Below, in pieces: positions 2,627 to 19,996 of a stretch of 64,000 nt of DNA; the first letter of the stretch is position 1; each line of letters opens with the position of its first letter. Source of the DNA: Dehalococcoidia bacterium. GTDB taxonomy: Bacteria > Chloroflexota > Dehalococcoidia > Bin125. The notes below the pieces were generated by a model. That model was not told the origin of the DNA. It saw only the letters and a list, made by a program, of their open reading frames with translations, and did no database searches. Where the stretch lies: assembly GCA_963663235.2 (NCBI GenBank), contig CAXXNO010000008.1, positions 30,107-94,106 on the forward strand, in the 5' to 3' direction. The position numbers were made by a program, and so were the translations under genes.

Positions 2627-3660
2627 GGGTACAGGCCGATCGATGGCAGCCCCGCCGTCTCTTCGATGCCGAACATCAGGTTGAGGCACTGCACCGCTGC
2701 GCCGGCGGCCCCTTTGACCAGGTTGTCCAGACAGCCGATCGCCACGCACCGCCCTGTGATGGCGTCGATGCTCGGGTAGACAAGGCAGGCGTTGCTGCCC
2801 ACGGTTTCCTTGGTGCTGGGCGCTGCGGCGGCTACGTGCACAAACGGATGGGCCGCGTAGAACTCCTGGTACCGATCCGCCAGCGCCGCCTGTGCCGCTT
2901 CCCGCCCCTCGGGCAGCGCACCCGCACGGAACCGCGCGTGTGCGGTGGCGAGCAGTCCGCGGGTCATGGGGATCAGGTGCGGCACGAAGGTCACGCTGGG
3001 CGCTTCGCCCTCCGCCGCCAGCGCGCTCAGCTCCTGCACGATCTCCGGCTGGTGGCGGTGCCCCTCCAGGCCGTACGCGCTCAGGTTGCCGTCCACTTCC
3101 GAGAAGTGGCTGCTCAGTTTCACCGTCCGGCCCGCGCCGGACACGCCCGACTTCGCGTCCACCACGATATCTGGCTCGATCAGCCCGCCTGCCACCAGCG
3201 GCGCAAGCGTCAGGATTGCGGCCGTTGGGTAGCACCCCGGCACGGCCACCAGCCGCGATTCCCGGATCGCCTCTCGATGCAGCTCCGGCAGCCCGTACGT
3301 CGCGCGATCCAGGTACTGCGGCTGGGGATGCTGGCCGTACCACTGCGCGTAGGTATCCGCGTCGTGCAGGCGGAAGTCGGCGCTGCAGTCGATCACCGGC
3401 AGGCCGCTCGCGATATACGGGGCCAGCGTCTCCGCCGCGGCGGCGTGCGGGAGCGCCGAGACCACTACGTCCACGTCGCCGGGCTCCTCCGTGATCGGAA
3501 GGTCCAGGGGCCACAGGTGCGGGAATACCTCCGGCAGCCGCTTCCCCGCCTCCGACCGCCCGGTCACGGACGCGACCGTTACCTCCGGATGCTCGGCCAG
3601 CAGCCGCGCCAGCTCAGCCCCCACGTACCCCGTCACGTTGAGTATGCCCGTCCGGATCAC
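2623..3660 (-). CDS. argC: N-acetyl-gamma-glutamyl-phosphate reductase
   Basis: MIRTGILNVTGYVGAELARLL...VAVPGCYPTAAIL contains the active-site Cys context. GTG start at 3658-3660 with a GGAG Shine-Dalgarno 7 nt upstream. Confidence 0.92.
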   Translation of the reverse strand: MIRTGILNVTGYVGAELARLLAEHPEVTVASVTGRSEAGKRLPEVFPHLWPLDLPITEEPGDVDVVVSALPHAAAAETLAPYIASGLPVIDCSADFRLHDADTYAQWYGQHPQPQYLDRATYGLPELHREAIRESRLVAVPGCYPTAAILTLAPLVAGGLIEPDIVVDAKSGVSGAGRTVKLSSHFSEVDGNLSAYGLEGHRHQPEIVQELSALAAEGEAPSVTFVPHLIPMTRGLLATAHARFRAGALPEGREAAQAALADRYQEFYAAHPFVHVAAAAPSTKETVGSNACLVYPSIDAITGRCVAIGCLDNLVKGAAGAAVQCLNLMFGIEETAGLPSIGLYP

Positions 3661-3668
3661 GGCATGCT

Positions 3669-3701
3669 CCGTTCGTCCTGAGCCTGTCGAAGGACGAACG
3701 G
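3669..3701. repeat. single REP-type hairpin immediately 5' of the argC start
   Basis: ccgttcgtcctgagcctgtcgaaggacgaacgg forms a 9-bp perfect stem. It belongs to the same family as the hairpins at 411-447 and 17361-17420. Its promoter-distal arm abuts or overlaps the argC Shine-Dalgarno. Confidence 0.8.
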
Positions 3702-3784
3702 CCTCACGTCTTGGAGGATTTCAGCCCCTCGAAGCACGCCCGCCGATGCCCTTTCGCCTACCCTACCCGCCCGCGCCCAACTCC

Positions 3785-4580
3785 GCACTCGGACATCGGT
3801 CCGCCAGGACACACTCCCCGCCCAGCGGCCGCTCCGCGTTGCACACCCCGCGCCCGAGGCGGCAAGCGTGACCGCACCGATCAGCGCCGTCCGCTCACGA
3901 CCCCTGCCCACCACTCCCATCGAACATGAAAACACTCCGACAGCCGTCGGCCAGGACACACTCCCCGCACAGCGGCCGCCCGCCTTGCACACCCCGCGCC
4001 CGAGGCGGCAAGCGTGACCGCACCGATCAGCGCCGTCCGCTCGCGACCCTTGCCCACCACTCCCATCAAACATGAAAACACTCGGGCAGCCGTCCGCCGG
4101 GACACACTTCCCGCACAGCGGCCGCTCCGCGTTGCACACCCAGCGCCCGAGGCGGCAAGCGTGACCGCACCGATCAGCGCCGTCCGCTCACGACCCCTGC
4201 CCGCCGCTCCCATCAAACATGAAAACACTCCGACAGCCGTCGGCCAGGACACACTCCCCGCACAGCGGCCGCTCCGCGTTGCACACCCCGCGTCCGAGGC
4301 GGCAAGCGTGACCGCACCGATCAGCGCTACCCGCTCACGACCCTTGCCCGCCGCTCCCATCAAACATGAAAACACTCGGGCAGCCGTCGGCCGGGACACA
4401 CTCCCCGCACAGCGGCCGCTCCGCGTTGCACACCCCGCGCCCGAGGCGGCAAGCGTGACCGCACCGATCAGCGCCGTCCGCTTACGACCCTTGCCCGCCG
4501 CTCCCATCAAACATGAAGGCACTCGGACATTGGTCCGCCAGGACACACTCCCCGCACAGCGGCCGCCCCGCCTTGCACAC
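3785..4580. repeat. tandem array, period 147 bp, about 5.4 copies, derived from the 3' end of nth
   Basis: The landmark catgaaaaca recurs at 3924, 4071, 4218 and 4365, and as catgaaggca at 4512. In-frame stop positions on the minus strand are 4482 (TAA, real nth stop), 4335 (TGA), 4188 (TGA), 4041 (CGA, stop lost) and 3895 (TGA). One unit is 146 bp. Confidence 0.95.
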
Positions 4581-5156
4581 TCGACGCCCGTGCCGGATCA
4601 CGGACACGTGGAACCGGTAGTACTGCCGCGACGTCATCTGCGCCTCCAACGCTTCGTGCGCCGCCGCTGCTCCCGTCTTGGCGTCGATCAGCCCCAGCCG
4701 CTGCGCCACTCGATGCACGTGCGTATCCACCGGCAGCGCCGGCCGCCCCAGCGCGAACAGCAGCACGCACGCCGCCGTCTTCGGCCCCACCCCTGGCAGC
4801 GACGTCAGCCACTCCTTCGCCTTCTTCAGCCGCATCCCCTTGAGCTGCCGCGCATCCCACTCGGGCCCCAGTCGCTCCCGCAACTCGGCCAGCAGCGCCT
4901 GCATCCGCGGCGCTTTCGTCTTGGCCAGCCCCCCGATCCGGATCGTCTCTTCCACTTCGCGCGTCGGCGCCGCCAGGACCGCGTCCCACGTGGGGTAGCG
5001 AGCGATCAGCGCTTGGTACGCGCGTCCCGAGTTGGTGTCCGAAGTGTTCTGCGACAGCAGCGTCAGCACTAGCTCCGCCACCGCGTCGCCGTGCGCCCGC
5101 CACGGCGGGATCGGTGCTTCGGCGTCCAGCCGCTCGATGATCTCCGCCGGCGTCAA
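4482..5156 (-). CDS. nth: endonuclease III (HhH-GPD DNA glycosylase with 4Fe-4S loop)
   Basis: LVLTLLSQNTSDTNSGRAY...LPGVGPKTAACVLLFALGRPALPVDTHVHRV...CKAGRPLCGECVLADQC shows the C-X6-C-X2-C-X5-C motif. No ATG or GTG lies in frame after the upstream gene's stop at 5249. The TTG at 5154-5156 (MTPAEIIERL) fits the family N-terminus. A longer basic N-terminal tail from a CTG near 5246 cannot be excluded. Confidence 0.85.
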   Translation of the reverse strand: MTPAEIIERLDAEAPIPPWRAHGDAVAELVLTLLSQNTSDTNSGRAYQALIARYPTWDAVLAAPTREVEETIRIGGLAKTKAPRMQALLAELRERLGPEWDARQLKGMRLKKAKEWLTSLPGVGPKTAACVLLFALGRPALPVDTHVHRVAQRLGLIDAKTGAAAAHEALEAQMTSRQYYRFHVSVIRHGRRVCKAGRPLCGECVLADQCPSAFMFDGSGGQGS

Positions 5157-5248: not shown

Positions 5249-5662
5249 TCAGGGCGTCAGCCCCGCTTCCGCGCAGCCGATCGGCGTCTCGCTCGCGTGC
5301 CAGAGGATCGTCCCGTCCATCTCCTGCCCCCCGGCTCCGTAGATCCGGCAGAAGGCGTCGCCGTTGACCACGACGCGAGCGTCGTAGACTCCCTCCTGCG
5401 GGAAGCGCCAGAATTCCCGCGCCGTGAGAGCGCCGCTCGCTCCGGACCCTTCTCGCGCCGCGGCGATCGTCGCCGCTTCCGGCGTCGCGTGGATGAACGC
5501 GGGCGGCTCTTCGGCGGCCGTTGCCGTCGCGCTCCTCGACACCACCACTTCGCTGATACGGGGTTCCGCGGCGGCGTCGCCGGTTCCGCCGCACGCGGCA
5601 ATCAACGGGACAACGAAGGGCAACAGGCCGCCGGCCACTGCAAGAACGGCGCCGCGTCTCAC
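5249..5662 (-). CDS. small lipoprotein of unknown function
   Basis: A GTG start at 5660-5662 overlaps the upstream stop as GTGA. The N-terminus VRRGAVLAVAGGLLPFVVPLIAACGG is a signal peptide with a lipobox Cys. Confidence 0.6.
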   Translation of the reverse strand: MRRGAVLAVAGGLLPFVVPLIAACGGTGDAAAEPRISEVVVSRSATATAAEEPPAFIHATPEAATIAAAREGSGASGALTAREFWRFPQEGVYDARVVVNGDAFCRIYGAGGQEMDGTILWHASETPIGCAEAGLTP

Positions 5663-6819
5663 AACAATCTCGTCGCCTGCGCCAGGCCGGGCCACCGGCG
5701 CAACTCCTCCGCGTACGTCGACCGGCCCTGCATCACCCGGAAGAACGCCCGCCAGAAATAGTCGATGCGGCGGCTGGCCGCCAGCGCCAGCGCTGGCCAC
5801 GTGCCGACGCACCAGTAGTACATCCGGGAGATCGCGCGCGCCGCGTCCAGCTCCGGCTGGATCTCGCGGTTCACGGCCGCTTCGTAGCGTCCCGCGGCGT
5901 CCCCGTCGCTGCCCAGCGCCGTCACCACCGCCGACGCCGCCAGCCGCCCCGACTGCACGGCGTACGCGATCCCTTCGGCGGTGAATTCGTCAGCCAGCCC
6001 GGCGGCGTCGCCTAGCAGCAGCGTCGGCCCGGCGGCGATCCGTTCCCGGCCCCGGCGGTAGCGGATCGGGTGCCCCCGCGCCTCCGTGATGGTGGCATCG
6101 GCCAGCCCCAGCCGCTGGAGGTAGTCGCGGCCCCGCGCGCGGATCCCCCGGCCGTCGCCCGGTGCCAGCACCAGCCCCACCGACAGCCGACCGGCCTTGG
6201 GAAAGACCCACCCGTAGCCCCACGGCCGGTACCCCACGTCCACGTTGGCCTGCCCCTGCCAGCGCCGCAGCGCCGCCGCGGGCGCGGCGACCTCCAGCTC
6301 CCAGGCCGCGCTCGTGGCCAGCTCTTGGCCCACGCCGGCCGCCCGCGCCACCCGGCCCGTGGCGCCGTCGGCGCCCAGCACCATCGACGCGTGGTACGAC
6401 CCGCCATCGCTGATCACCCGCGCGCCGCCGTCGCACGGCTCCACGGTCTGGACCGTCTCGCCCTGGTGCACCTCCGCGCCGGCTTCCCCGGCCCAATCCA
6501 GCAGCAGGTTGTCGAACCGGTCCCGCATCACCATGTAGGCCAGCGGCTGCTTCGATCGCTTGCGGAAGCCGCGACGGCCGAGGTGGCTCACCTCGATCCC
6601 CTCCACGACGTCTTCCACCACCGTCTCCACCGGCCGTTCCAGCAAGGCGGCGGCGCGTAGGGGGATGCCGCCGCCGCAGACCTTGTACCGCGGGTGCGTC
6701 GCCTTCTCGATCACCAGGGTGCGCACGCCGGCGCTCGCCAGGCGCCGCGCGGCGGTGCTGCCCGCCGGCCCGCCGCCCACGACGATCGCCTCCCACTGCT
6801 CCGACTCGGGTGCCTTCAC
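5659..6819 (-). CDS. geranylgeranyl reductase family FAD-dependent oxidoreductase
   Basis: WEAIVVGGGPAGSTAARRLASAGVRTLVIEK is a GxGxxG FAD fold, followed by YKVCGGGIP and a C-terminal LLLGDAAGLADEFTAEGIAYAVQSG. Confidence 0.8.
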   Translation of the reverse strand: MKAPESEQWEAIVVGGGPAGSTAARRLASAGVRTLVIEKATHPRYKVCGGGIPLRAAALLERPVETVVEDVVEGIEVSHLGRRGFRKRSKQPLAYMVMRDRFDNLLLDWAGEAGAEVHQGETVQTVEPCDGGARVISDGGSYHASMVLGADGATGRVARAAGVGQELATSAAWELEVAAPAAALRRWQGQANVDVGYRPWGYGWVFPKAGRLSVGLVLAPGDGRGIRARGRDYLQRLGLADATITEARGHPIRYRRGRERIAAGPTLLLGDAAGLADEFTAEGIAYAVQSGRLAASAVVTALGSDGDAAGRYEAAVNREIQPELDAARAISRMYYWCVGTWPALALAASRRIDYFWRAFFRVMQGRSTYAEELRRWPGLAQATRLL

Positions 6820-6990: not shown

Positions 6991-7220
6991 CTTCCTCCCC
7001 CTCTCCATCGCTTGCCGATGGAGAGAGGGCCAGGGGGTGAGGTTCCCCCCCATCCCTCGCGACGGCGGGAGCTGGGGTGTGGCCCGTTCCCCGCCCCTTC
7101 CCCCTCTCCATCGCTTGCCGATGGAGAGGGGGCCAGGGGGTGAGGTTTCCCCTCTCGTTCGTGTCCAAGGAGGGCCAGGGGGCGCTTGCGCCCTTCGCAC
7201 AGCGGAAGGGTGAGGCTCCC
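6990..7220. repeat. second REP/MITE-like cluster
   Basis: ctctccatcgcttgccgatggagag occurs at 7001-7025 and 7104-7128, each followed by ggccagggggtgaggtt. The third copy of the 45-nt module lies at 7173-7217. Confidence 0.85.
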
Positions 7221-17310: not shown

Positions 17311-17535
17311 CGCCGTTCGGCCCCGCCTTCCCCCCCTACCCCGACCGGTACTTCGCGCTGCCCCGTTCGTCCTGACCTGTGGTGAGCCTGTCGAACCAGC
17401 CTGTCGAAGGATGAACGGGGCGCCGTTCCGCCCGCCTTCCCCTGACCTGTGGTGAGCCTGTCGAACCAGCCTGTCGAAGGATGAACGGGGCGCCGTTCCG
17501 CCCGCCTTCCCCTACCCCGACCGATACCGCGCCTT
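17311..17535. repeat. REP array with two identical 70-nt units, flanked by two copies of the DinB-family gene's stop-codon region
   Basis: Units 17371-17440 and 17441-17510 are identical (cctgacctgtggtgagcctgtcgaaccagcctgtcgaaggatgaacggggcgccgttccgcccgccttcc). The gene end ctaccccgaccgataccgcgcc (17511-17532) is repeated as ctaccccgaccggtacttcgcgc (17336-17358). Confidence 0.9.
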
Positions 17536-18039
17536 CTGCGACGGCTGCAGCGCCTCCACGTCCTCGAACGCCCGATCGTAGATCTGCGGCGGCTCCCACC
17601 TGTTCAGCCCCGCGTACGTGTCGATCTGGCTGCGGTGGTGTACGTCGTGCTCCACCATCATCATCAGCAGCCGCCAGGCCGTGACCGTGCCCTCCGTGTC
17701 GATCAAGTCGATCTTGCGACGCAGCCATTCATCGGGGCTGCCCTCCAGCGCCGCCACCACCAGGTCCCCGCTCTCCTCCAGCGCCGGCAGCCACCGCTCC
17801 TGGCTGCTCACGTCCGGCGCCTCCGGGAAGATCCACCCCTCACCCCGGTACGCGCTCACGAAGTACCCCCGCGACTGCGCCATGTGCGCCACGATGCGGT
17901 TCACGCTCCACCCCTGCTCCCCCTCCCCCACCGCCGGCGCCCACCCCTCCGCCTCCGGCGGCAGCGCCCCCACGTCCCGCATCGCCCGACGGTTGATCGA
18001 CCCGAAGTACCGCAGAAAATCCCCCATGCTCGTCAGCAT
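17512..18039 (-). CDS. DinB-family (DinB_2 / YfiT-like) metal-dependent protein
   Basis: Four-helix-bundle pattern with His residues: RIVAHMAQSRGYF ... MMMVEHDVHHRSQIDTY. Confidence 0.75.
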   Translation of the reverse strand: MLTSMGDFLRYFGSINRRAMRDVGALPPEAEGWAPAVGEGEQGWSVNRIVAHMAQSRGYFVSAYRGEGWIFPEAPDVSSQERWLPALEESGDLVVAALEGSPDEWLRRKIDLIDTEGTVTAWRLLMMMVEHDVHHRSQIDTYAGLNRWEPPQIYDRAFEDVEALQPSQKARYRSG

Positions 18040-18141
18040 CTCCGGCTCCCTCCCGCGCCGCAGCGCTGCGGGCAGTCTACCCGCTCCCGTCCGGCCGCTG
18101 GCCTGGGCAGCATCCCTCGTTCCACCGCCCGCACCCGCCCC

Positions 18142-19996
18142 CTAAGCTTCCTCCCCGTCGTCGCTGCCTTCCTCGTCGATCCACCGGATCGCGTCGTATC
18201 CATCGACACCCCGCAGCGCCTCCTCCCACTTGCGCTCTACCCGCGCACCACCAAATCTCGTCGACGCATTCGACTGCACGTCGAAGAGGTTCGCGCCGCG
18301 CAGGTCCGCGCCCGACAAGTTCGCGCCGCGCAGGTCCGCGCCCGACAAGTTCGCGCCGCGCAGGTCTGCGCCCGACAAGTTCGCGCCGCGCAGGTCCGCG
18401 CCCGACAAGTCCGCGCCCACCAGGTCCGCGCTCGACAGGTCCGCGACCACCGGGCCCGCGCTCGACAGGTCCGCGCCCGCCAGGCCCGCGCTTGACAGGT
18501 CCGTGCCCCCCAGGGCCGCGCCCGACAAGTCCGCTCCCCCCAGAAGCGCGGCCGACAAGTTCGCGTGCTCCAGGTGCGCGTGCGACAAGTCCGCGCCCTC
18601 TAGGTGCGAGTGCGACAAGTTCGCGCGCTCCAGACCCGCGTCCGACAAGTCCGCGTTCTCCAGGCGCGCGCCTGACAAGTCCGCCTCTCCCAGGGCCGCG
18701 CCCGACAAGTCCACCTCCCCCCGCGCCCGACAAGTCCACCTCCCCCAGGTGCGCGCCCGACAAGTTCGCGCCCTCCAGGTTCGCGCCCGACAAGTCCGCG
18801 GCCCCCAGGCGCGCGCCCGACAAGTCCGCGCCCCCCAGGTGCGCGCCCGACAAGTCCGCGCCCCCCAGGTGCGCGCCCGACAAGTTCGCGTCCACCAGGC
18901 GCGCGCGCGACAAGTTCGCGTCGGCCAGATCCGCGTCCGACAAGTCCGCGCCCATCAGGCGCGCATCCGACAAGTCCGCGCCCATCAGGCGCGCGCCCGA
19001 CAAGTCCGCGTTCCACAGGCGCGCGCCCGACAAGTTCGCGTCGGCCAGATCCGCGTCCGACAAGTCCGCGCCCCGCAGGAACGCGCCCGACAAGTCCGCC
19101 TCCGTCAGGTCGACACCGCGCAGGTTCGTGCCGTGGAGATCGAGCGCACCAGCGTCGGCAACCTCCTTCTTCGGCCGGTTCCGCTTCAATACGCCCACTA
19201 CTGCCAGAAGATCGTGGCGCGTAACAGGCTCGTCTTCTTTCTCCTCCTCGGGCTCGGCCGCCTCCTCCTCGGAAGTGACTCTGTCCTCTTCGCCCTCTTC
19301 CTGCTCGGGATCAGTCTCCCTTTCTCGCTTCTCGCGCACGCGCGGCGAGTGCAGCCGCAGGTACGCCGCCAGGATGTCCATCACCGGCCGGTAGTCCTCG
19401 TCCGACTCCTGCGCGATCCGCTCCAGCGTCCGGATCGCCCCCAGCCGGATCTCGATGCGCGGCTTCCCCTCGCCGTCTTCTGCCCCCAGCTGCTCCATCG
19501 CTCGGATGAAACGGTCGGTGATCTGCCCCTGCTGCTCCACCATGATCCGGCGCCACGCGAAATACGCCCCCGCGATGCCCACTGAGAACACCAGCCCACC
19601 GGCGATGACCGCGACCAGCGTCCGCCGCGCCGAGTCCTCCCGCTCCAGACGCTCCCGCACGCTTAGGCTCGGCGTGTCGCCCACCTGCCGCTCCGGCACC
19701 TTCCACAGAACCACGAAGACAATGGCGATCAGCGCGATCGCCAGCGCAATCCGTATTTCTCCCCTACGCAGCGCCCTCTCCACCAGACCCCGCCCCGCGG
19801 TGTAGCGCCTGCTCAGCCACAGACCCAGCCGCAGCAACCTGCGGACGGCGCGGGTCTTGCGGCGGCCGATCCTGCGTCGCAGGCGGGCGAGCCTGGATCG
19901 CGTTTCCCACGCCCCCCGCCGCGCGCGGCGCCACGCCCACCCCGCCGGGCCCAAGAACTTCGCCATGGCCCGGATGTTAGTCGCTTCCCCAGCCAC
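18142..19996 (-). pseudogene. membrane-anchored pentapeptide-repeat protein, split by a +1 frameshift at a C6/G6 run (18717-18722)
   Basis: The N-terminal frame (19996 down to about 18723) has a basic N-terminus, two TM segments, an acidic linker and then A(D/N)LSG pentapeptide repeats. The repeats continue without a break in the frame of ORF 18142..18714, which ends ...[14 protein letters not shown]. The shift lies between two perfect copies of GGGGAGGTGGACTTGTCGGGCGCG, the second of which carries one extra G. Confidence 0.7.

Follow-up and report, generated by a model that had tools for sequence, protein, structure and literature searches.

The window analysed here is the whole stretch of 64,000 nucleotides, and the features considered lie on its minus strand, at the junction of nth (endonuclease III) and argC (N-acetyl-gamma-glutamyl-phosphate reductase). 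The neighbourhood codes for an ABC transporter, an FAD oxidoreductase, a 148-aa protein of unknown function, Nth and ArgCJBD. Judged from its domains and motifs, nth ahead of the repeats is a bona fide endonuclease III: the protein matches the Pfam families HhH-GPD (1.6e-14), HHH (3.3e-6) and EndIII_4Fe-2S (7.6e-5), all above the cut-offs, and carries LPGVGPKTA…VDTH, which includes the catalytic Lys and Asp, and CKAGRPLCGECVLADQC, the C-X6-C-X2-C-X5-C cluster loop. Relatives keep the order FAD-oxidoreductase, nth, argC, argJ and argB. Since nth and argC are 33–49 nt apart in relatives, and the upstream oxidoreductase gene overlaps nth there by 4 nt, nth and argC are probably co-transcribed in one operon. 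The coordinates are collected in table 1.

Table 1. Genes, repeat units and spacers at the nth–argC junction.
Feature	Position	Strand	Remarks
nth (endonuclease III), 224 aa	4482..5156	-	ORF; TTG start, TAA stop 4482-4484; protein identical to database protein P0121
Expressed nth end, cut at stops	4628-4482	-	ends ...CPSAFMFDGSGGQGS-TAA
u0, expressed copy of the repeated 99 nt	4482..4580	-	reads VCKAGRPLCGECVLADQCPSAFMFDGSGGQGS-stop; 89.7% identical to unit 1 over 97 nt
Unit 1, 147 nt, TGA stop	4335..4481	-	spacer B 4434-4481; core A1 4372-4433; tail A2 and TGA 4335-4371
Unit 2, 147 nt, TGA end	4188..4334	-	Pro to Arg change in CPSV
Unit 3, 147 nt	4041..4187	-	CGA in place of the stop
Unit 4, 146 nt, TGA	3895..4040	-	1-nt deletion in the G run of the Fe-S loop (frameshift); 5' part of the core u0-type (AAGGCGG)
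Distal partial unit (spacer B and core A1)	3785..3894	-	second loop Cys is Gly (TGC to GGC); reads on to ...LGGECVLADRCPSAELGAGG-TAG
Relic tail ELGAGG and TAG (3763-3765)	3763..3784	-	apparent positional equivalent of the relatives' nth end (…CPSAGLGRAG-stop)
Unique spacer ahead of argC	3661..3762	-	holds palindromic REP-like hairpin 3669-3701
argC (N-acetyl-gamma-glutamyl-phosphate reductase), 345 aa	2623..3660	-	followed by argJ and argB; Semialdhyde_dhC_1 1.8e-53

Tandem Repeats Finder reports a period of 147 bp at 3786-4580, with 5.4 copies, 92 per cent matches, 0 per cent indels and a score of 1338. This agrees with an earlier description made from the letters alone (hereafter the sequence-only reading), which had proposed a 147-bp tandem array of the nth 3' end in about five copies. 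The array is a single head-to-tail block between nth and argC, made of the last 33 codons of nth with the stop and a 48-bp spacer. Unit ends were set by cutting the minus strand at stops. A unit of 147 nt thus has 99 nt of the nth 3' end (the C-X6-C-X2-C-X5-C loop, the tail and the stop) and 48 nt of other DNA, and is divided here into the core A1 (62 nt, encoding the Fe–S loop V-C-x6-C-x2-C-x5-C-PSx), the tail A2 (37 nt with the stop, encoding FMFDGSGGQGS) and the spacer B (the 48 nt). The order at the locus is nth…A1-[A2-B-A1]x5-old tail-stop, followed by 103 nt of unique DNA and by argC at 3660; the array terminates partway through a unit. Identity of the units to unit 1 is 94–96.5 per cent. 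The loop variants of the internal units are NAER and LADGCPSV. If translated, internal units would give the peptide strings ADGADRCGHACR… or MCNAERPLCGEC….

The stops that the sequence-only reading had placed at 4482, 4335, 4188 and 3895, its CGA at 4041 and its 146-nt unit are all right in coordinate and residue. It had taken every copy to be in frame with nth; this holds for units 1–3 and fails for the distal copy, which is out of the nth frame because of the 146-nt unit. Nor is the array the only region upstream of argC, as had been supposed, since the 103 nt of unique sequence, with the hairpin at 3669-3701, separate it from the argC start.

The comparison set consists of the window and six other metagenome assemblies from six samples (ERZ25766727, ERZ28669063, ERZ28763718, ERZ26167216, ERZ25071055 and ERZ25071968), with contigs of 71 kb to 1.6 Mb, which were located through the exact Nth protein and its 90 per cent cluster. 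The array is present at the same nth–argC junction in all six (6/6), which belong to the same Chloroflexota species group. There are five units in L003 and L005 (nth–argC gap of 821 nt), in L004 (823 nt, one unit being of 149 nt) and in L008 (823 nt, one unit being of 148 nt). Assembly L007 has six units and a gap of 968 nt, and L006 has a single unit, a gap of 172 nt and no hairpin before argC. Between strains with five or six units the identity of the flanking genes is 99–100 per cent; in the sister lineage L006 it is 96 per cent. All multi-unit strains share one order of unit types, marked by SNPs and indels that are specific to single units. Each of the five closely related strains has retained five units or more in this order, and no recent collapse is seen within the species. 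The additional unit of L007, its unit 2, combines the head of unit 2 with the body of unit 1; such a hybrid is what unequal crossing-over predicts. Spurious open reading frames of 234 and 257 aa are called across the array in two assemblies, the longer one in L007.

Among named relatives the closest are MAGs of Chloroflexota or Dehalococcoidia, and a scan of genome contigs for nth relatives returned only Dehalococcoidia MAGs with 70 per cent identity. The next relatives of the species group, at 74–82 per cent DNA identity, have the same gene order and an nth–argC gap of 33, 49 or 123 nt, and the array is absent at this junction in them. The nth–argC gap of L013 and L014 contains two copies of the REP-like hairpin.

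Of the 11 positions at which u0 and unit 1 differ, seven crowd into 19 nt (p about 0.017); the differences define two haplotypes, LAD(Q/R)CPSA and LADGCPSV. This clustering and the u0-type 5' segment of unit 4 indicate patches of gene conversion, as read from the aligned copies. The internal copies are in decay: indels have shifted the frame, one stop is lost, and Cys has changed to Gly and Pro to Arg. The odd unit lengths (146, 148 and 149 nt) vary between strains and break the frame differently. The density of substitutions per nucleotide is similar in B (0.23), A1 (0.15) and A2 (0.16). The part of the internal units that derives from nth has 15 distinct substitutions; 10 of them hit third codon positions, and nine, when read in the nth frame, are synonymous (p 0.005 with a naive null, 0.03–0.05 with GC- and transition-weighted nulls), while the changes in spacer B are even over the three phases (4, 3 and 4). 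With n = 15 this synonymous excess is a hint of a weak coding-like signature, which pure neutral decay would not predict. It could stem from conversion by once-expressed copies, from units that at times occupy the expressed position, from their translation, or from chance. The expressed copy u0 is identical in the window and in the five same-species assemblies. That of L006 differs at two sites, neither of which has the state found in internal units.

The Nth proteins of the relatives nearest in protein identity end in …CPSAGLGRAG-stop, …AGSGRAG-stop, …AYLGGAG-stop and …ARLGLAG-stop, all with six residues after CPSA. The distal relic tail has the same length and pattern (ELGAGG-stop in the window, EAGAGG-stop in L006), and its GGGCGGG-TAGGGTA aligns with L009 (shuffle p about 0.02–0.03). 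The distance from the relic stop to argC in the one-unit L006 is 40 nt, against 33–49 nt between nth and argC in L009 and L010. By these three resemblances, of tail, alignment and spacing, the distal end …AELGAGG-stop looks like the older nth end, the positional equivalent of the ancestral one. Two types of nth end are contrasted at the locus, …AFMFDGSGGQGS-stop and …AELGAGG-stop. The expressed tail CPSAFMFDGSGG… is of a type widespread in the Nth family (CPSAFTFD-stop, CPSAFSFGESAG…, CPSAFTFGDK…, and CPSA-x-x-F generally). By comparison with these family members it is a normal Nth tail, not junk turned coding by chance. CPSAF-x-F tails are present in many family members, which bears out the expressed tail as a legitimate type.

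The 85 nt of A2 and B, which lie between the 62-nt cores, have no significant match to any local candidate source in local alignments compared with shuffles. The p values are 0.19 against 120 nt of nth upstream sequence; 0.20 (window) and 0.24 (L006) against the distal tail with the intergenic DNA and the argC 5' end; and 0.70, 0.51 and 0.78 against L010, L013 and L015, respectively. Marginal signals were obtained with the tail of L009 (p 0.012) and with the sequence downstream of nth in L017 (p 0.06). The 17-nt string CTGGCCGACGGCTGTCC of the LADGCPSV haplotype is also found in the nth of L017. This nth ends in …AFTFD-stop and is directly followed by CGGCGACTGATCGG, where the unit carries CGGCG-CTGATCGG (p about 0.06). 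These similarities are leads for a captured second nth allele, not proof of one.

The first unit may have arisen when the 3' end of a second nth allele was captured by one-sided or Campbell-type recombination. It may also derive from a plain 147-bp tandem duplication, from nth codon approximately 190 into the first approximately 12 codons of argC, followed by decay. Spacer B has 20–21 ungapped matches to the first 38 nt of argC, a value reached by 0.1–0.3 per cent of all window positions but by 19 of the 223 TGATC-anchored positions; B as a relic of the argC start is thus a lead only, and the alignment gives the duplication route weak support, similar to that which the L017 similarities give to allele capture. 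The sequence-only reading was right that the unit copies the nth 3' end. Its proposal that a tandem duplication spanning the gene end explains the whole structure falls short: the array ends inside a unit, the distal tail differs, the relic stop lies at the position of the relatives' nth end, and 85 nt are unmatched. Two other models were considered and rejected. Under the tandem-inversion-duplication model spacer B would be an inverted copy of the core, for which p is 0.55–0.64; no inverted repeats of at least 14 nt were found at the array, and so no terminal inverted repeats of that length. The microhomology CGTGATCCGG(C)ACGGGC is present in nth (4586-4602) and at the argC start, with a unit-less spacing of about 145 nt, near the period; however, the unit junction lacks the sequence that a duplication seeded there predicts.

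The explanation that best fits these observations, with a probability of roughly 0.7, is that the locus is a copy-number-variable minisatellite (VNTR), functionless as far as can be demonstrated. Its units are arranged head to tail, their number differs between strains whose flanks are 96–100 per cent identical, and hybrid and mosaic units are present. The founding event would have occurred on the branch leading to the species group and converted nth…A1-tail-stop-argC into nth…A1-[A2-B-A1]-old tail-stop-argC, a state that would survive as the single unit of the 96 per cent identical sister lineage L006. From then on nth would stop at the new proximal tail, leaving the old end as a silent relic adjoining argC. 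The expansion to five or six 147-nt units, which the strain comparison shows, would then have come about by unequal crossing-over or replication slippage at the two 62-nt direct repeats, and gene conversion between units would give the observed mosaics. The internal copies appear to be under no detectable functional constraint. Some observations speak against this reading: the synonymous excess, the sense-strand RNA of one unit, which folds somewhat better than its shuffles, the retention of five units or more in one order by all five closely related strains, and the 85 nt of A2 and B that lack a match. Among the options offered by the sequence-only reading, neutral slippage junk is the nearest to the data.

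Several other explanations have to be weighed against a drifting VNTR. That strain variants or reads were stacked into a false tandem array is a natural concern, the source being a metagenome assembly judged from its assembled sequence. However, the array recurs in the six other assemblies with one, five or six units, and this variation of copy number among sister strains argues that it is real; the same junction, the same unit order and the differences in copy number across assemblies are therefore not those of an artefact. Seven independent sequences, on contigs of up to 1.6 Mb, share the unit order and the unit-specific SNPs and indels, and the units differ by 3.5–6 per cent in a fixed order that mis-stacking would not reproduce. 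We regard an artefact as extremely improbable. A dispersed mobile repeat, MIRU- or MITE-like, could adjoin nth by chance: the genome is rich in short dispersed repeats, the hairpin at 3669-3701 lies nearby, and MIRUs are likewise found inside operons, between the genes, in variable copy number (PMC3184786). Against this, two thirds of the unit are the adjacent nth 3' end and terminal inverted repeats of at least 14 nt are absent. The 64-kb window has the unit at this site only, and JGI metagenomes and IMG/VR gave no exact-pattern match; the spacer pattern has no match in either collection, and back-translated FMFDGSGGQG has none in JGI metagenomes. The check for a generic dispersed repeat thus went in favour of a local array, and a mobile repeat is highly unlikely. 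The units might instead be translated, by readthrough of the nth stop into proteins with extra Fe–S loops, or as four-Cys peptides of about 33 aa from the in-frame GTG of …GRG-V-CNAER…. Units 1–3 are in frame with nth, one stop is CGA, C-X6-C-X2-C-X5-C is kept in each intact unit, and the synonymous excess of the internal units would suit such a role. However, the genuine nth stop is TAA, the 146-, 148- and 149-nt units break the frame differently by strain, no Shine–Dalgarno-like sequence is seen ahead of the internal GTG, and the unit peptide alone matches no Pfam family. Readthrough products, which the sequence-only reading had offered, do not sit with a frame that is not conserved, and translation in either form is very unlikely.

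A role at the RNA level deserves somewhat more weight, though it too is unlikely. The array would be a G-rich, structured, untranslated spacer of 0.8 kb that modulates read-through from nth into argCJB by termination, processing or Rho protection. The probable co-transcription of nth and argC speaks for it, as do a strong G excess on the sense strand (plus-strand GC skew of -0.26 to -0.34 across the array), the folding of one unit at z = -2.0 in the sense direction (6 of 200 shuffles are as good) against z = -0.1 in antisense, a 14-pair hairpin spanning each B/A1 junction, and three weak terminator-like sites in the units. However, in an alignment of 13 distinct units there is no covariation beyond that of shuffles (196 of 500 do as well), the consensus fold differs from the minimum-free-energy fold of a single unit, and no Rfam family matches anywhere in the window at the gathering score. 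The terminator-like stems have just 5 bp, a scan for promoters and terminators returned these three weak sites and no promoter-like site in the array, and otherwise near-identical operons have from one to six units. The structured spacer regulating argC that had been suggested thus finds neither covariation nor an Rfam match behind it. An expression site with silent cassettes, in which alternative Nth C-termini stored in the internal units would be moved into the expressed position by recombination, we hold to be decidedly unlikely. The layout is suggestive, with an expressed end followed by in-frame partial copies bearing loop variants, u0-type and internal-type sequences are mixed (for example in the 5' part of unit 4), and the expressed tail has apparently replaced an older one. 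Selection on the expressed end would keep silent copies partly coding-like, and the internal units do have an excess of synonymous and third-position changes. But none of the internal-unit variants is present in the expressed copy, which does not vary among the six same-species sequences, so there is no sign of cassette exchange or of the recombination reservoir that had been envisaged; the two differences of L006 are likewise not internal-unit states. Moreover, every unit is credited with a stop of its own, several are frame-shifted, the distal one has lost a cluster-ligand Cys, and varying the Fe–S loop of a housekeeping glycosylase would seem to have no biological rationale. We give still less credence to a related scenario, in which a 147-nt cassette with an alternative nth 3' end (LADGCPS…F-x-F, resembling L017) was captured, displaced …CPSAELGAGG-stop and was amplified, the silent copies being under intermittent purifying selection through unequal crossing-over into the expressed position. 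If true, it would make this a system of cassettes and an expression site that serves a housekeeping enzyme, with a replaceable Fe–S-cluster end of a DNA glycosylase.

As a drifting VNTR, the locus would be a natural example of a tandem repeat that is seeded at the end of a gene and swaps the C-terminal tail of the protein, the old end being kept as a relic; the one-, five- and six-unit states are all preserved in sister lineages. The array could be used as a strain-typing marker for this uncultured Chloroflexota species, and it is an annotation trap for gene callers. Nothing in the data leads one to expect a new mechanism.

The locus can be compared with several known systems. Integration of an element between attL and attR leaves a direct repeat of a gene 3' end on either side of the insert, the proximal copy supplying the replacement end. 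The proximal copy of nth would similarly be a replacement end, with the original end displaced downstream, but here the 'insert' measures just 85 nt, no integrase is among the called genes, and tandem amplification of the unit followed. Diversity-generating retroelements have a variable repeat (VR) and a template repeat (TR), an adjacent reverse transcriptase, and differences between the copies at template adenines. As in these elements, a gene 3' segment of approximately 100–150 bp is repeated just downstream. However, neither a reverse transcriptase nor an integrase is found among the genes called near the array, the downstream base is an A at only one of the 11 columns in which u0 and unit 1 differ (column 62), and there are five tandem copies instead of one template repeat. 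The vlsE/vls system of Borrelia and the pilE/pilS system of Neisseria concern surface antigens and consist of an expressed gene and partial, variant, promoter-less silent cassettes. The nth array resembles them in having one expressed end followed by partial, variant, promoter-less copies. It differs in that none of the seven sequences has cassette-derived mosaicism in its expressed copy, the units carry stops, some of them being frame-shifted, and the gene encodes a housekeeping repair enzyme.

The MIRU-VNTR of Mycobacterium, in the summary of Supply et al. (1997) given in PMC3184786, have units of 40–100 bp, are dispersed at about 40–50 loci and are not derived from adjacent genes; the same summary describes them as transcribed within operons, variable in number and with short reading frames abutting the neighbouring genes. 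The nth array is likewise tandem, variable in number and located in an intergenic gap inside a probable operon, with which it would be transcribed; its units, too, contain short reading frames. Unlike the MIRU-VNTR, its unit is 147 bp, with 99 nt from nth, and occurs at one locus, dispersal not being met with in the window, JGI metagenomes or IMG/VR. The closest likeness is to bacterial minisatellites (VNTR) in general, which also have head-to-tail units of tens to hundreds of base pairs, a strain-variable copy number, and hybrid units and concerted evolution through unequal crossing-over or slippage. The nth array differs from them in that its unit is made of the 3' end of the flanking gene, including the stop; for this reason the first repeat supplies the end of the expressed gene, and what looks like an older gene end lies at the far side of the array.

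Small insertions recur in the gap between nth, the endonuclease III gene, and argC, which marks this gap as a hot spot. It holds a REP-like hairpin (CCGTTCGTCCT-N11-AGGACGAACGG); the hairpin is missing from the lineage with a single repeat unit (L006) and is present in two copies in the gap of the more distant relatives L013 and L014 (3733–3855 in both), which have no array. The whole 147-bp array is enclosed by a direct repeat, CGTGATCCGG(C)ACGGGC, common to nth, where it is read as part of …S-V-I-R-H-G-R…, and to the start of argC (M-I-R-T-G). If the array were removed, the two copies would be about 145 nt apart, a spacing near the 147-nt period. A simple exchange between these copies was considered and rejected, as it does not fit the junction sequence of the units.

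Coordinates of repeats and related features in the window.
Feature	Position	Strand	Remark
REP-like hairpin	3669–3701		immediately upstream of argC
Direct repeat CGTGATCCGG(C)ACGGGC	4586–4602, 3647–3662	minus	
59-nt dispersed repeat family	345–403, 520–578, 7162–7220		
54-nt dispersed repeat family	6996–7049, 7099–7152		
30-nt-period array, 27 copies	18292–19099	minus	within region 18077–19996

Two short dispersed repeat families (59 and 54 nt), with copies 88–97% identical, are located in intergenic stretches on the flanks of the arg operon and of the ABC-transporter genes. A palindrome is part of the 54-nt repeat, and the peptides beginning MERGPGGE… are the reading of both families by maximal ORFs.

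On the other side of nth, this species carries a minus-strand ORF of 148 aa (5249–5695) between the FAD oxidoreductase gene and nth, for which a Pfam search gave no match; in L006 and in two array-free relatives, L009 and L010, the oxidoreductase gene directly overlaps nth. In the automatic gene calls of the five-unit assembly L008, nth is joined to the upstream 148-aa ORF, giving a 404-aa product (3001–4215). ORFs of 257 and 234 aa were called automatically over the array in alternative frames (3650–4423 in the six-unit assembly L007 and 4338–5042 in L008, respectively); these calls are probably spurious.

Elsewhere in the window, a perfect tandem duplication of 70 nt (17371–17513; 2.0 copies, 100% identity) is found just 3′ of a minus-strand ORF (17512–18039), overlapping its stop by 2 nt. 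The 30-nt-period array encodes pentapeptide repeats, and two ORFs in different frames (18142–18714 and 18077–19996) divide this region between them; the split points to a frameshift or a sequencing error within the repeat, or to a pseudogene.

In another lineage (L017), nth ends in …CPSAFTFD*, and the sequence CTGATCGG is present twice (CGGCGACTGATCGGACAGCTGATCGGGCGAC) immediately 3′ of the stop (L017 1817–1850). This sequence is similar to the start of spacer B, the 48-nt spacer of the array unit.
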